Origin: a virus
Direction: 5' to 3' (one strand)
Length of the DNA: 33,480 nt
Virus record (IMG/VR): IMGVR_UViG_3300028591_000144
Below the pieces are notes generated by a model, which did not search any database, was not told where the DNA came from, and saw nothing but the letters and a program-made list of their open reading frames with translations. Below, piece after piece: positions 1,207-10,081 of this stretch (positions within the stretch are counted from its first letter, which is position 1; every line of letters begins with the position of its first letter). The position numbers and the translations under genes are program-made.

Positions 1207-1599
1207 ATGAAGATCGAGAATTACAATCACTACAGCAGAAAGCAGGTCAACTATGGCCTGTGTGCAGGCCGTCACGATATGCCGGTTGATGAGTGCATCT
1301 TTGAGGATACACTTGATCCGACAGATTTTGACGGAATGACCCGTGTGGCCGCACGGGAATTGAAGCAGTACCGCGGCCGCAATATCCATCTGGTGGTGTA
1401 TGCCACCGGATTGACGGCCGCAATGATTGCGGTCATCAACGTTTGCGCCGCATGGCGCATTGACCTTACGGTCATGCACTATGACCGTGCAACGGGGGGC
1501 TATCTCCCCCAAACGGTCATTGAAAGGCCGTACTGCGTGTACTGCGGGGCTGAGTACCCGCTGAACGCGCAGGAATGCCCGGAGTGTCAGGCCACCTGA
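1207..1599 (+). CDS. hypothetical protein, C-terminal CxxC...CxxC zinc ribbon (130 aa), about 55 percent GC
   Basis: ORF track. SD GGAAGGAAAAACC. Motifs CVYC and CPEC at C-terminus. Confidence 0.65.
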   Translation: MKIENYNHYSRKQVNYGLCAGRHDMPVDECIFEDTLDPTDFDGMTRVAARELKQYRGRNIHLVVYATGLTAAMIAVINVCAAWRIDLTVMHYDRATGGYLPQTVIERPYCVYCGAEYPLNAQECPECQAT

Positions 1600-1610
1600 C
1601 ACTCCACAAA

Positions 1611-1637
1611 GGTAGACGGAACGCCTTAAAGACTCCG
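1611..1637 (+). promoter_or_regulatory. 27-nt intercistronic box B copy 1 (GGTAGACGGAACGCCTTAAAGACTCCG)
   Basis: Exact 27-mer directly after the stop codon and before the next SD. 12 copies in the window. Confidence 0.75.
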
Positions 1638-1662
1638 AAACATTTATATAGGAGGAAGAAAA

Positions 1663-1980
1663 ATGATGATTAAGACTTTCACGGGAGCGATTATCGCTTC
1701 TGTGAGCAGCCAAAATGAATGGGAGCGCAACCGGCTCCCGTTCATCGTGGAGTACCGCACTCAGGGCGTGCGAATTCTTCACGGGGCCGATAGCATGGAG
1801 CTGGCTCTGTACTGGGCTCGCTTCAATGCTGAAGCCCACGCCGCAAATGCGGCACCCGCGGCAACACTGTTCATTTATGAACAGAACCGCGGGAAAGACA
1901 AGCGGTTCAACCGCTGGTTGGTTGGTGCCGTCATGTATGATGGCGAAACGGTCAGCCAGTGGGTCGAGGGTCAGGAATAA
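1663..1980 (+). CDS. hypothetical protein (105 aa)
   Basis: ORF track. SD TAGGAGGAAG. Confidence 0.65.
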   Translation: MMIKTFTGAIIASVSSQNEWERNRLPFIVEYRTQGVRILHGADSMELALYWARFNAEAHAANAAPAATLFIYEQNRGKDKRFNRWLVGAVMYDGETVSQWVEGQE

Positions 1981-2002
1981 CATCCTGACCCTCTTTTTTT
2001 TT
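1965..2002 (+). terminator. rho-independent terminator
   Basis: gagggtcagga-ataaca-tcctgaccctc + T9. Confidence 0.85.
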
Positions 2003-2043
2003 GCCTTACGGCAAACCACGACTCACACAGCAAATCTATTCGC

Positions 2044-2085
2044 CTGCCCCTGCTGGGATGGGTCGGGCCGCAAGGAACGAATTTT
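2044..2085 (+). repeat. Module-A G-triplet box copy 3
   Basis: ctgcccctgctgggatgggtcgggccgcaagg. Confidence 0.7.
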
Positions 2086-2296
2086 ACAAAACAAAAGTAA
2101 CCGAAAAAACACAAAACAAAAGTGACAAAGCCAAGAGAGAAAGAAAAAATCCTGATAGTCGCATGCCACGTGCGCAAACCCCCTGTATTTACTGGACTTT
2201 TCAAGATATACGAAAAAAAATATTGAAAAAAAAATATTTTTGATATATAAAAGAATCACAACAGGCAAAAAGAAAAAACAGAAAGGGGAATGAAAT

Positions 2297-2686
2297 ATGA
2301 CTAACTGGCATGAAGTCCAGCAAGACTGGATAGGATATGAAATCAAAGATACTGATATCCCTATCCATGATTGGTGGGACCACGAAGACAGGACAACATA
2401 CATATATTGTCACGTGGCCCTCGGGACAGTTGTCTTTGTTGCTCCGGACCGTTACGGCAATGAAGACATTGCCACAGTGTTCACAAACACCGGTATAATC
2501 GGGGTTGTGAACGTCAAGACGTACAGGTTCTTGACAATGTACGTCACGTCTCAAAGTAAGCTGTTAGATGCTTACACGAGAGCACGTGGCAAGGGGAATG
2601 AACTCCCATTACCGCAAGAAACTCTTTTAGCGGTAAGAGAGTTATACAAGAATCCTGAGGCTCGAGTTAGATTGGAAATGACCTGA
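2297..2686 (+). CDS. hypothetical protein (129 aa)
   Basis: ORF track. SD AAAGGGGAATGAAAT. Confidence 0.6.
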   Translation: MTNWHEVQQDWIGYEIKDTDIPIHDWWDHEDRTTYIYCHVALGTVVFVAPDRYGNEDIATVFTNTGIIGVVNVKTYRFLTMYVTSQSKLLDAYTRARGKGNELPLPQETLLAVRELYKNPEARVRLEMT

Positions 2687-2696
2687 GCTTCGCCCC

Positions 2697-2718
2697 AAGG
2701 GGACGGGGTAAAGTCCCC
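2697..2718 (+). promoter_or_regulatory. intercistronic hairpin ggggac-GGGGTAAA-gtcccc
   Basis: Stem-loop with the GGGGTAAA loop also found at 4553-4572 and 5839-5858. Confidence 0.45.
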
Positions 2719-2747
2719 ACTAAATAACAAAGAAAGGATATGAAAAC

Positions 2748-2933
2748 ATGGCTGAAAAACCCACCCTGTATTTCGTTATGTGCTTGGAATACAAGCACAA
2801 AGATGGAACCATCACAAAGGATATGACCCTTGCGATGGTCAATGACGAAGAGTTGGCGAACAAGAATGCGCTTCTCTGGCAGAATGAACCGGAGTGCATT
2901 GGCGACATTGTTGTCCGCCCAGTAAAGTCTTAA
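2748..2933 (+). CDS. hypothetical protein (61 aa)
   Basis: ORF track. SD AAAGGAT. Confidence 0.55.
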   Translation: MAEKPTLYFVMCLEYKHKDGTITKDMTLAMVNDEELANKNALLWQNEPECIGDIVVRPVKS

Positions 2934-2941
2934 ACACTGAA

Positions 2942-2968
2942 GGTAGACGGAACGCCTTAAAGACTCCG
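2942..2968 (+). promoter_or_regulatory. box B copy 2
   Basis: Exact 27-mer. Confidence 0.75.
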
Positions 2969-2995
2969 ATACTTTAAAAGAAAGGAGAACGAAAA

Positions 2996-8287: not shown

Positions 8288-8317
8288 AAGGCCGGGGGTA
8301 ATACCCCGGCTTTTTTT
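8288..8317 (+). terminator. rho-independent terminator
   Basis: ggccggggg-taata-ccccggc + T7. Confidence 0.85.
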
Positions 8318-8325
8318 ATTTTCAA

Positions 8326-8363
8326 CCGCACGTGCTGGGTAGGGCTGGGCAGCAAAAGCCGAG
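8326..8363 (+). repeat. Module-A G-triplet box copy 8
   Basis: Canonical sequence. Confidence 0.75.
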
Positions 8364-8547
8364 TTCCTTCTTTAACAAATAAACCAAAAAATACAAAAAT
8401 AAAAGTAGATAAAACCAAGAGAAAAGAAAATTCCTATAATTAAAATTACTATGTGCAAAAAGCCCCTATTTACTGGGCTTTTGGAGATTCTTCAAAAAAA
8501 ATATTGCAAAAAAAATTTTTTTGATATAAGTTGTAATTGTCCTCAGC

Positions 8548-8569
8548 AAAAAAAAAAAAAAAAAAAAAA
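8548..8569 (+). repeat. A22 homopolymer in 5' UTR
   Basis: 22 consecutive A between module-A promoter and leader hairpin. Paralogous leaders carry mixed sequence here. Confidence 0.8.
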
Positions 8570-8613
8570 TGAAAGTCCTGCGGTGAGGACAGCAGGCAGA
8601 AAGAGGTTGCCCT

Positions 8614-8949
8614 ATGCGTAAAATGCTTCATAACATCCGTTCCCTGCGTGCTTCTATCCTCAATGAGATGCGTGAAATTCAGCCTATTCTCGATGCCCGT
8701 GAGGAAGCTTATAATGCTGTCCTCAGCCGTGAGCCGGACGAGTCTCTTCCTGATTCTGACCCTATCGTGGTTGCGTGGGATAAAGAGTATGAGATCACTC
8801 GTGATGCATACAAAAATGTCGAAATGCGCTATGACGAGCTTGATTATCTGGCAAAAGCCCTTAAGGACGTTATCTCTCATCATGTTAGTTGGATGTATGA
8901 CCACCACGTTGAGGGATTTAACTGGGACGAACTTGGCAAATCATTCTAA
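8614..8949 (+). CDS. hypothetical protein (111 aa)
   Basis: ORF track. SD AGAGGTTG. Confidence 0.6.
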   Translation: MRKMLHNIRSLRASILNEMREIQPILDAREEAYNAVLSREPDESLPDSDPIVVAWDKEYEITRDAYKNVEMRYDELDYLAKALKDVISHHVSWMYDHHVEGFNWDELGKSF

Positions 8950-8956
8950 GCATACA

Positions 8957-8983
8957 GGTAGACGGAACGCCTTAAAGACTCCG
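8957..8983 (+). promoter_or_regulatory. box B copy 9
   Basis: Exact 27-mer. Confidence 0.75.
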
Positions 8984-9016
8984 CAATAATTTAAAATTAA
9001 AAAAGGAGTAAAAAAC

Positions 9017-9388
9017 ATGATTAACTTCAATCAGTATCCTGCATTTCTTTCTGTTCGTGCTTATAATCTGCTTGCCCGCTGGGAAAGCAATACTGGGACT
9101 GACGTTCAGAACTCTGATGAATTCAGAGATTGGTTTCTTGAATTCATTGGCGGCAAGCCTTTGCGTAATATGGGTTCGAAAACCCTTGCTGAATACTGCG
9201 CTTATGCAGCGGTTATGATGTGGATTGAAGAACCGCATCATTACCGTGAAAGCAACAGCACTCGTAAACAGAGACTCAAAAATAATGCAAAATCCCTTTT
9301 TGAGTATCACGTAGCAGGTGGTTGGATTGAATCTCAAAATGAAAAAGTCTACCACTGCATTGATAAAGTAATAAATAACTGGTTCTAA
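9017..9388 (+). CDS. hypothetical protein (123 aa), weak resemblance to an RNAP alpha-CTD-like helix-hairpin-helix motif
   Basis: ORF track. SD AAAAGGAGTA. Segment LSVRAYNLLARW resembles LSVRSANCLK of RNA polymerase alpha C-terminal domain. Similarity judged by eye only. Confidence 0.6.
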   Translation: MINFNQYPAFLSVRAYNLLARWESNTGTDVQNSDEFRDWFLEFIGGKPLRNMGSKTLAEYCAYAAVMMWIEEPHHYRESNSTRKQRLKNNAKSLFEYHVAGGWIESQNEKVYHCIDKVINNWF

Positions 9389-9392
9389 AAAA

Positions 9393-9426
9393 AAGCCACT
9401 CTCAAATGAGAGTGGCTTTTTTTTAT
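9393..9426 (+). terminator. rho-independent terminator
   Basis: agccactctca-aa-tgagagtggct + T9. Confidence 0.85.
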
Positions 9427-9432
9427 TGTCAA

Positions 9433-9470
9433 CCGCACGTGCTGGGTAGGGCTGGGCAGCAAAAGCCGAG
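9433..9470 (+). repeat. Module-A G-triplet box copy 9
   Basis: Canonical sequence. Confidence 0.75.
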
Positions 9471-9715
9471 TTTAAGGCTATGAAATAAAACAAAAAAAGA
9501 CAAAACAAAAACGATAATTCCAAGAGCAAAGATAAAATTCCTATAATTAAAATATTATGCGCAGAAAGCCCCTATTTACTGGGGGTTTTGAAGATATATT
9601 AAAAAAAATATTGCAAAAAAAATATTTTTAATATAAGTTGTAATTGTCCTCGACAAACAATAAAAAAAAATTTAAAAGTCCTGCTTGAGGACAGCAGGCA
9701 GAAAGAGGTTACCTT

Positions 9716-10081
9716 ATGACCTATCTTTACAAACCCGAATGGCTCGAAAAGATTCTGTCTCTGTATGAGGACATTGAGTTCTTTATTCAGGACTGCAATT
9801 CTCTGTATCAGCAGATTCAGGGCGAGAGCGACCGCTTTCTTGACGGTCTGGACTGGGAATTCCATAATGGGATTAAGATTCTGTATGGTGAAAGCGTTGG
9901 AGTTAACTACCTCAACAAAATTGCCGACCTTAAGGATATTGACGTTATCCTTAAAGACTACAATCCTCAGGACTTACTTCGTTATGGGCAAGAGATTCTT
10001 GAAGAGTCTCGAAAAGAACTTGCTAATCTGGAAAAAGATTGGCGAGAGACCCTTGACCGCTGGGATGCGGAATGTAAATAA
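9716..10081 (+). CDS. hypothetical protein (121 aa)
   Basis: ORF track. SD AGAGGTTAC. Confidence 0.6.
   Translation: MTYLYKPEWLEKILSLYEDIEFFIQDCNSLYQQIQGESDRFLDGLDWEFHNGIKILYGESVGVNYLNKIADLKDIDVILKDYNPQDLLRYGQEILEESRKELANLEKDWRETLDRWDAECK

Follow-up and report, generated by a model that had tools for sequence, protein, structure and literature searches.

The viral DNA analysed here (IMG/VR virus record IMGVR_UViG_3300028591_000144; 33,480 nucleotides, hereafter the window) raises the question why open reading frames (ORFs) that lie side by side in its first 11 kb, between copies of the same control sequences, differ so strongly in base composition. The window measures 33.5 kb, has an overall guanine plus cytosine (GC) content of 36.6% and carries only small ORFs, every one on the + strand. 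A strict repeat architecture of modules, ORFs and terminators, referred to below as the array, occupies the first 11.3 kb. An initial annotation described several of these ORFs as GC-rich cargo inside an AT-rich conserved scaffold, and suggested a cassette-acquisition platform. We found that the ORFs are heterogeneous at synonymous sites, that they are gained, lost and replaced at the repeats, and that homologues of the same gene can differ in composition. With a probability of roughly 60%, the first 11 kb form a hyperplastic early-gene region of a large cattle-rumen phage, resembling both the promoter-early stem-loop (PeSL) cassettes of T4-type phages and morons, in which homologous recombination between repeats shuffles the genes and the GC mosaic reflects the histories of the cassettes.

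The array comprises about ten same-strand transcription units, each in the order module A, 5' untranslated region (5'UTR), one to four ORFs, and a hairpin resembling an intrinsic terminator. Terminator-like sites numbered 28, versus 9.7±3.2 in shuffled sequences. The GC content of the array is 44% in coding and 36% in non-coding DNA. Module A is a composite terminator/promoter of 225 nucleotides (nt) that is present in 10 copies in the first 11.3 kb, and is built, from 5' to 3', of a G-rich (YWGGG)x3 motif, an A-rich spacer, a hairpin with a T-run, and the promoter-like sequence AAAAAAAATATTGCAAAAAAAATTTTTTTGATATAAG. This promoter-like core is invariant and has an extended -10 element (TGnTATAAG), its activity being predicted. 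The core layout A8-TATTGCAA-A6T7-GATATAAG, with the hairpin and T-run upstream, was present in 10 of 10 copies, and the opening motif of the module reads TGCTGGG-(T/A)(A/T)-GGG-NT-GGG. The second repeated element, box B (GGTAGACGGAACGCCTTAAAGACTCCG), is a near-invariant sequence of 27 nt that separates most cistrons within the units and is followed by a short leader and a ribosome-binding site (RBS). All 12 copies are on the coding strand, 6-14 nt past the stop codon and 25-45 nt ahead of the next start. For comparison, we used three bovine rumen metagenome contigs (L015-L017), reached by a homologue search with the ORF starting at 1207 and sharing ~89% nucleotide identity over the array, and two more distant relatives, of the ~70% protein identity class (L006 and L007), found by way of box B. 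The array and its repeated elements are positioned as follows.

36-55, + strand: poly-G tract of ~20 G after a pyrimidine tract, the left border of the array
56-11335, + strand: whole array, with 22 ORFs of 54-155 amino acids (aa), one probable pseudogene and three tiny hydrophobic ORFs
150-375, + strand: module A copy 1, with G-rich motif, A-rich spacer, hairpin and T-run, and AAAAAAAATATTGCAAAAAAAATTTTTTTGATATAAG
903-1128, + strand: module A copy 2, with a hairpin (1042-1066) that is scored as an intrinsic terminator
2038-2263, + strand: module A copy 3; L015 has an extra 1.1-kb three-ORF unit between two copies of the module
3141-3364, + strand: module A copy 4
4084-4309, + strand: module A copy 5
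5162-5385, + strand: module A copy 6, within the window-specific segment 4838-5897
6543-6766, + strand: module A copy 7
8320-8544, + strand: module A copy 8
9427-9651, + strand: module A copy 9
10535-10759, + strand: module A copy 10
11276-11335, + strand: lone G-rich motif that closes the array, immediately 3' of the last box B
1129-1206, 3365-3442 and 5386-5461, + strand: shared structured 5'UTR
1611-1637, + strand: box B, between the GC-rich ORFs 1207-1599 and 1663-1980
2942-2968, + strand: box B
4848-4874, + strand: box B, ahead of the AT-rich ORF 4903-5121, where segment 4838-5897, specific to the window, has its left edge
6132-6158, + strand: box B, variant with C at position 6
6371-6397, + strand: box B, CCTA variant
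7337-7363, + strand: box B, where homology to L015 returns exactly, past the replaced ORF 6861-7328
7735-7761, + strand: box B, beginning the 57-nt box B plus leader repeat on the left side of cassette 7801-7989
7999-8025, + strand: box B, beginning the 57-nt repeat (98% identical) on the right side of cassette 7801-7989
8957-8983, + strand: box B
10091-10117, + strand: box B
10386-10412, + strand: box B
11240-11266, + strand: last box B, with no ORF after it in the window and an extra 67-aa ORF in L015

The composition of the ORFs was measured as GC3s, the GC counted at synonymous third positions only, which takes out amino-acid effects. Across the 22 array ORFs (422-11230), GC3s ranged from 0.15 to 0.66 (chi2 = 119, 21 degrees of freedom, p = 1e-15), and neighbouring ORFs differed by up to 0.45. 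The compositional mosaic is therefore real and synonymous, although within the array strongly GC-rich ORFs are restricted to 1207-1599 and 1663-1980. The ORFs singled out in the initial annotation gave the following values (GC3 is the GC at third codon positions).

1207-1599, + strand: ORF, 55.5% GC, GC3 0.67, GC3s 0.66
1663-1980, + strand: ORF, 55.7% GC, GC3 0.66, GC3s 0.64
8614-8949, + strand: ORF, 46% GC, GC3 0.46, GC3s 0.42
9716-10081, + strand: ORF, 43% GC, GC3 0.48, GC3s 0.46
4903-5121, + strand: ORF, 31% GC, GC3 0.19, GC3s 0.15
6861-7328, + strand: ORF, 36% GC, GC3 0.33, GC3s 0.32

Thus, the first pair, the former put at about 55% GC, and the last pair, put at about 33%, were described correctly, but ORFs 8614-8949 and 9716-10081 are not far GC-richer than their surroundings, since their values lie around the array coding mean of 44%. 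Sliding-window GC (300 nt) peaked at 0.53-0.56 over 1201-2100. If the mosaic had been an amino-acid effect, the codon usage of all ORFs should have clustered together once amino acids were controlled for. It did not, because in a within-amino-acid principal component analysis (PCA) of codon usage the ORFs spread along a continuum without a single cluster, with GC3s as the first axis (r = -0.94). The array ORFs were mostly at the GC-rich end, and six of them were not distinguishable from the AT-rich region. The 59 ORFs at 11.9-33.2 kb had a lower pooled GC3s than the 22 array ORFs (0.272 versus 0.454; Mann-Whitney p = 2e-7), and these right-hand ORFs were heterogeneous too (p = 1e-20). The GC enrichment was equal in C-ending and G-ending codons and in two-fold and four-fold families, and the GC of codon positions 1 and 2 increased with GC3s (rho 0.62). 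Since all codon classes and positions 1 and 2 shift together, it is the background of the whole gene that has shifted and not the use of a few favoured codons, which is what a long stay in a different mutational background would produce. The scaffold is AT-rich only in part: module A averages 33% GC, with 47-64% in the G-rich motif that forms its first 45 nt and 23-31% in the rest, box B has 56%, and the three shared 5'UTRs have 49-53%. The mosaic also extends beyond the region for which it was described, as a GC-rich ORF (56% GC, GC3s 0.64) is located at 32427-32777.

The array ORFs, including the GC-rich ones, are real genes. Differences from L015 at codon positions 1/2/3 were 83/56/223 for 15 orthologous ORF pairs, with 15/8/33 and 14/8/26 for the GC-rich pair, ORFs 1207-1599 and 1663-1980, and this concentration at position 3 indicates purifying selection.

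A comparison of the window with L015 revealed nine insertions, deletions or replacements in 11 kb, with breakpoints mostly in module A, the 5'UTR/RBS or box B.

Event 1: ORF 422-622, replaced
Event 2: three-ORF 1.1-kb unit present only in L015 (L015 7478-8571), between two module A copies
Event 3: ORF present only in L015, ahead of the gene at 3443
Event 4: ORF 4355-4540, exchanged for unrelated sequence of the same length
Event 5: segment 4838-5897 present only in the window, with a duplicated 74-aa gene on both sides
Event 6: ORF 6861-7328, replaced
Event 7: ORF 7801-7989, present only in the window
Event 8: tiny ORF at 10447, replaced
Event 9: ORF present only in L015, past the last box B

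At the replaced ORF 6861-7328, identity is ~99% through promoter, 5'UTR and RBS, is lost at the start codon and is back at box B. This swap is therefore ORF-precise, from RBS to box B, with 36% GC in the window and 46% in L015. Cassette 7801-7989 is bounded at base level by a 57-nt repeat (box B plus leader) on both sides. For this cassette, for segment 4838-5897 and for the L015 unit 7478-8571, the genes that flank the insert are adjacent in the relative without it. Likewise, L006 and L007 differ by the presence of a 263-bp unit of one ORF plus box B, delimited exactly by box B copies, and a second indel is a 2-kb block with module repeats at its flanks. The 22 array ORFs of the window and the 27 of L006 and L007 have no protein family in common (phmmer, E<1e-3), yet box B is identical over its 27 nt. 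Genes to the right of the array show 61-92% protein identity between L007 and the window. These results bear out the picture of a constant scaffold with variable cargo. However, the scaffold is not the more conserved part at orthologous positions, where its identity to L015 is 88.6% versus 89.4% for the cargo, and slower evolution of the scaffold at these sites was therefore rejected. The identity of individual ORFs to L015 is itself a mosaic (54-98.6%), and this, together with the equal divergence of scaffold and cargo, is the signature of recombination in a pool of relatives.

Orthologues in L015 hold the GC3s of the window, e.g., 0.66/0.66, 0.64/0.65 and 0.30/0.32, and the ORFs that occupy the slot at 6861-7328 have a GC3s of 0.32 (window) and 0.56 (L015). 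Homologues were compared by the fraction of GC-ending codons, counted at identical residues only. An array copy in L015 scored 0.65 versus 0.37 for its non-array homologue in the window (13056-13364; p = 0.003), and 0.62 versus 0.24 when compared to the L007 copy (p = 4e-5). Tandem paralogues lying 500 bp apart in L006 scored 0.70 versus 0.43 (p = 0.002), and members of another L006 family 0.74 versus 0.30 (p = 0.013). Since homologues differ in synonymous GC at identical residues, the composition is cargo-borne and travels with the genes. The non-array genes that flank the array in the relatives have a GC3s of 0.06-0.27, so that the resident background is AT-biased.

The following mechanism probably accounts for these data. 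The ~10 short operons would be transcribed by the host RNA polymerase. Because ORFs without any relationship are bordered by the same sequences at many places, both here and in the genomes of co-infecting relatives, homologous recombination between them could delete, duplicate, insert or swap ORFs or whole operons and leave the expression signals intact. We infer that this recombination is homologous and not enzyme-directed, and a circular intermediate of one ORF plus one repeat, as proposed for T4-like phages, may apply to the array too. The background of the resident lineage would be very AT-rich, as the flanking genes and the rest of the window (mean GC3s 0.27) suggest. The array would be restocked continually with cassettes that evolved in other, related phages, some of them GC-richer. 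Each ORF would keep the composition of its own history, which would place GC3s values of 0.15 and 0.66 side by side. An origin of the GC-rich cassettes in GC-richer phages is thus the presumed cause of their enrichment. As to the suggested cassette-acquisition platform, cassettes do turn over at the repeats, but there is no integrase in the genes scanned and no attC-like site, and there are ten promoters.

The closest known parallel is formed by the PeSL cassettes in the hyperplastic regions of T4-type phages (Arbiol et al. 2010, PMC2839356; Comeau et al. 2014, PMC4122927). For PeSL cassettes, shuffling by homologous recombination between the repeats was proposed, with a circular intermediate of an ORF plus one repeat. 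PeSLs resemble the array in three further ways: an intergenic composite of an AT-rich tract, a sigma-70-type promoter and a stem-loop terminator or attenuator is repeated, as in the 10 module A copies with their predicted promoter; the motifs precede small orphan ORFs; and the motifs delimit the indels and replacements that distinguish close relatives. The array differs by its much longer repeat (225 nt) with an extra G-rich (YWGGG)x3 motif, and by a second, promoter-less exchange element within operons, box B, and we know of no compositional mosaic described for PeSLs in these reports. The genome is also not recognisably T4-like: neither the 33 kb nor the flanks of the relatives yielded T4 core genes, structural genes being outside the sequence examined, the promoter and RBS style looks Gram-positive-like, and close relatives carry in-frame TAG codons. 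PeSL-type hyperplastic regions are already known, and the array stands out among them by its intra-operon exchange box and by the complete turnover of cargo on a conserved scaffold.

Morons have been defined by a deviant GC content and their own promoter and terminator (PMC3594210). The array likewise consists of independent units with their own promoter and terminator, recognised here as sequence motifs. The deviant GC applies to 1207-1980 and 32427-32777 (55-56% versus 33-44%) and to 4903-5121 (31%), and not to most units. A moron is usually a lone insertion in a late operon of a temperate phage and is expressed from the prophage, whereas the array consists of tens of contiguous units whose regulatory parts are copies of each other, and no integrase or repressor was seen as a sign of lysogeny. 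Dense clusters of small, functionally uncharacterised early genes with strong host-type promoters and terminators between them also occur in the host-takeover module of the Bacillus phage SPO1 and in the pre-early region of T5. Those clusters are located in terminal repeats, whereas the array is internal to the contig in the relatives. We know of no near-invariant intercistronic box in the SPO1 and T5 clusters, nor of reports of cassette-precise turnover or a GC mosaic in them. A position of the array at a physical genome end was ruled out, because the poly-G tract at 36-55 is conserved, in an interrupted form, in relatives whose contigs run on further to the left; two assemblies break there.

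Several observations weigh against the proposed cassette shuffling as the source of the mosaic. No donor was found for any cassette, so that import from GC-richer phages rests on indirect evidence. Nearly all array ORFs are orphans in Pfam, PHROGs and homologue searches: 0 of 20 scanned ORFs were above the curated Pfam cut-off, and 19 scanned against PHROGs gave two marginal matches only. A large protein search with the concatenated array ORFs gave no match, and megablast of both window halves against known phage genomes gave none either. A tblastn search of phages with the 22 concatenated array ORFs returned weak Fusobacterium-phage matches to ORF 1207 only. The suggestion that the ORFs are heterogeneous in origin, in the sense of different taxa, was thus not borne out by ORF-by-ORF homology, which provided outside homologues for ORF 1207 alone and no cross-taxon donor. 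In addition, the breakpoints are not all on one element, one being at the start of the next ORF, and the comparison of turnover with a close relative covers the array. Canonical box B is conserved far past the needs of a recombination substrate and is not stably folded, and must therefore have some other function. Finally, GC3s is raised array-wide in three lineages (window, L015 and L006/L007), and orthologues retain their GC3s over 8-16% nucleotide divergence; a selective pressure related to position or timing would predict the same pattern.

Such selection is the main rival explanation, and we consider it possible, although rather unlikely. It holds that the array genes are translated first, while the host apparatus is still unmodified and neither phage tRNAs nor stop-codon reassignment have come into play, and therefore use host-like, GC-richer codons, with the heterogeneity reflecting expression level or time since insertion. 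Besides the recurrence of raised GC3s in three lineages of different gene content and the identical GC3s of orthologues, this would fit the gene family that is GC-richer in its array copy (0.59) than in two non-array copies (0.40 and 0.22). It would also fit the array-flanking genes of the relatives, which contain in-frame TAG and are extremely AT-rich, and the window ORFs, which are without any in-frame TAG. However, tandem paralogues in one array are far apart (0.70 versus 0.43; 0.74 versus 0.30), alternative ORFs of one slot, downstream of a common promoter and leader, have a GC3s of 0.32 and 0.56, and six array ORFs share the codon usage of the AT-rich region. Moreover, codon positions 1 and 2 shift as well, all codon classes move together, and the explanation rests on an assumed host codon usage. 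Selection would account for the array-wide rise in three lineages, but not for the wide gaps between tandem paralogues or between alternative ORFs in a slot.

The conservation of box B brings enzyme-driven capture into consideration. Canonical box B has a folding energy of -4.2 kcal/mol (z = 0.05), no better than shuffled sequences, and a stable RNA hairpin is thus unsupported for the canonical sequence. One L015 variant, at the site orthologous to 1611-1637, does fold strongly (-15.3 kcal/mol) by a longer stem, CGGGGA/UCCCCG, with the loop GCCUUAAA unchanged, and no further such variants were found in the sequences of the window and its relatives. An Rfam scan of the window gave no match at gathering thresholds, and relaxed thresholds gave terminator look-alikes and two sub-threshold DUF2815-RNA matches over box B (24 bits, cut-off 41). 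Exact and relaxed box B patterns had no match in IMG/VR, and of six metagenome matches, four were single-copy and otherwise dissimilar to the window. The near-invariance of box B across lineages without a common array protein family suggests sequence-specific recognition by something.

If box B were the dedicated site of a phage recombinase or homing-type nuclease, the array would resemble an integron. As in integrons, small, mostly orphan ORFs of mixed composition point in one direction, each beside a short conserved site at which single-ORF units are gained or lost exactly. The exchange unit can be one ORF plus one box B, three junctions are at box B, two of which at its 5' edge, and HNH and GIY-YIG nuclease genes are located upstream of the array in a relative. 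However, neither the scanned array ORFs nor the genes called in the 8-10 kb upstream of the array in L015 and L016 contained an intI or other recombinase domain, tyrosine or serine. Integron attC sites measure 57-141 nt and are imperfect palindromes folding in single-stranded form, unlike the 27-nt box B, and integron cassettes are promoter-less and depend on a single Pc promoter, whereas the array has ten promoter modules in 11 kb and a promoter of its own for each unit. There is also no attI/attC structure, and boundaries are found at several types of site, including module A, the 5'UTR and ORF starts. Repeats of 27-57 nt and ~210 nt suffice in length for homologous recombination in phages. 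The array fails three defining tests of an integron, which is not supported, and integron-like capture by an enzyme is very improbable. A related proposal, in which a protein encoded by the phage recognises box B and guides the capture and exchange of cassettes with ORF precision, we regard as improbable; it would make the array a recombinase-independent or nuclease-driven 'phage integron' of a stop-codon-reassigned rumen phage, with the GC mosaic stemming from captures from phages of different hosts.

GC-biased gene conversion, by which G/C-biased heteroduplex repair in a recombination hotspot would lift the local GC, agrees with the frequent recombination in the array and with its higher GC compared to the surroundings. 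It is highly improbable, because the exchanging segments are the most AT-rich (module A without the G motif, 23-31% GC). Moreover, neighbouring ORFs are up to 0.45 apart in GC3s, and the near-identical block 8614-10081 is no GC-richer than more diverged blocks. An assembly artefact, in which reads from organisms of different GC were joined into a chimeric contig, is effectively refuted: the sequence is metagenomic, and repeats and poly-G could in principle mislead an assembler, but a second, independent assembly matches 11.5 kb at 99.97% identity, the order of GC-rich and AT-rich ORFs and their GC3s are the same in three further samples (~89% identity), and the poly-G tract is found in relatives.

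Early-gene arrays of this kind are home to phage host-takeover and anti-defence genes, most of them functionally uncharacterised, and the array genes would presumably have such functions. At this locus, gene trading can be followed base by base, with exchange units as small as one ORF flanked by a ribosome-binding site and a 27-nt box, on a scaffold that outlasts all its cargo, and ORF composition may serve as a tag of history. The PeSL principle, known from T4-like phages of Gram-negative hosts, would then be at work in an unrelated, uncultured rumen phage lineage with TAG-carrying relatives. In practical terms, polymerase chain reaction directed at the repeats could retrieve the diversity of cassettes in rumen viromes, as is done for integrons.

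The G-rich motif consists of three pentamer-like repeats (GCTGGG-TAGGG-CTGGG) and starts every module A, always on the + strand. It is positioned between a terminator and the next promoter, and occurs also at 11276-11335 and 11594-11630. L006 and L007 contain a related G-rich motif, CGCTGTGGGGTGTGYTGGG, with 17 copies in 11.6 kb of L006. A role as protein-binding site or Chi-like signal is speculation. The G-motif pattern gave three single matches in IMG/VR, apparently by chance, and L002, the only one checked, had no similarity to the window. The 5'UTR shared by three unrelated first ORFs (1207, 3443 and 5462) is near-identical (~94% identity) and structured, with a long-range stem, GTCCTCAGC...GCTGTAGGAC, and a GCAA-tetraloop hairpin, and a leader in L007 has a similar loop (ACCGCAAGGG). 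Spacers between cistrons of the window other than box B form stable hairpins.

The individual ORFs and segments of the array, and their counterparts in L015, are listed below.

422-622, + strand: ORF of 66 aa; L015 has instead a 101-aa ORF, a 41%-identical homologue of window ORF 4903-5121
1207-1599, + strand: ORF of 130 aa with a C-terminal zinc ribbon
1663-1980, + strand: GC-rich ORF of 105 aa
4355-4540, + strand: ORF of 61 aa, GC3s 0.60; L015 has unrelated sequence of equal length (54% 'identity')
4838-5897, + strand: window-specific segment, not in L015, bracketed by two copies of a 74-aa gene
5898-6122, + strand: probable pseudogene, a duplicate of the 74-aa ORF 4613-4837 with 80% nucleotide identity
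6861-7328, + strand: AT-rich ORF of 155 aa; the L015 slot holds an unrelated 128-aa ORF (46% GC, GC3s 0.56)
7801-7989, + strand: ORF of 62 aa, GC3s 0.32, in the window and not in L015, bounded by the 57-nt box B plus leader repeat
8614-10081, + strand: block of three ORFs (8614-8949, 9017-9388 and 9716-10081) with the array-average GC of 40-46%
2997-3080 region, 6425-6472 and 10447-10494 in the window, and 2785-2830 and 4346-4393 in L007: tiny hydrophobic ORFs

The L015 orthologue of ORF 1207-1599 has 85% protein identity and an equal GC3s. A homologue with 51% identity and a GC3s of 0.71 is located on a phage-like contig of 51% GC in an Oscillospiraceae genome bin, and the weak homologues in Fusobacterium phages are in AT-rich genomes. 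The predicted structure has a beta-alpha-beta core plus the zinc ribbon (predicted local distance difference test score 75). A fold search gave SAVED/CARF domains, which sense cyclic nucleotides, as best matches, including a viral SAVED ring nuclease (E = 0.04, template modelling scores 0.41-0.45), none of them significant (E = 0.04-0.2), and we take an anti-defence role only as a lead. ORF 1663-1980 had only two representative homologues among 1.84 billion proteins. For ORF 6861-7328, exact-protein look-ups gave no match and a homologue search returned just itself.

Segment 4838-5897 contains a box B, ORF 4903-5121, a terminator, module A copy 6 and ORF 5462-5827 (GC3s 0.52). The adjoining copy of the 74-aa gene, 5898-6122, has an in-frame TGA where copy 4613-4837 has TGG (Trp), and is therefore probably a pseudogenised duplicate. 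Reading of this TGA as Trp was ruled out, as 12 other ORFs end in TGA. Synonymous sites of the two copies favour A/T in 5898-6122 (11 versus 5 discordant), which is not significant. Block 8614-10081 is 98-98.6% identical to L015, versus 85% for the adjoining blocks. The tiny hydrophobic ORFs of 15-27 aa (e.g., MLTIIIFMILGSLFD and MLIIIVFFILGSLFD) are the last cistron before a terminator, in the window and in L007.

To the left of the array in the relatives (L016:328-7981 and L015:93-4421) are genes with YonG_N, HNH_3/NUMOD1, GIY-YIG and other domains. The 11 genes checked beside the array contain 44 in-frame TAG and no in-frame TGA or TAA codons, which points to TAG reassignment in the lineage, a feature reported for gut phages (PMC10879173, PMC11210395). 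The 81 ORFs of the window end in TAA (68), TGA (12) or TAG (1) and have no in-frame TAG, and the early region reads the same under the standard and the TAG-reassigned code.

The remainder of the window (12000-33480) is probably a second, more AT-rich hyperplastic region. No related loci were found by way of the window protein 16741-17064, and a search with 17426-17992 gave four contigs that share essentially the zinc-ribbon domain alone with the window, without the scaffold. The following features are located here.

26135-26215: tRNA-Ser(CGA), the only tRNA in the window
32427-32777, + strand: GC-rich ORF in a neighbourhood of 33% GC, with a promoter-like site at 32122-32177

ORF 32427-32777 matches PHROG families 30233 and 19455, both of uncharacterised function, and the ORF downstream of it is absent in another sample. 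This region has its own repeated promoter families (TTGACA-17-TATAAT type) and GC-rich hairpin modules, as well as paralogous small ORFs, e.g., 18872-19060/20119-20307 and 17426-17995/28387-28656.

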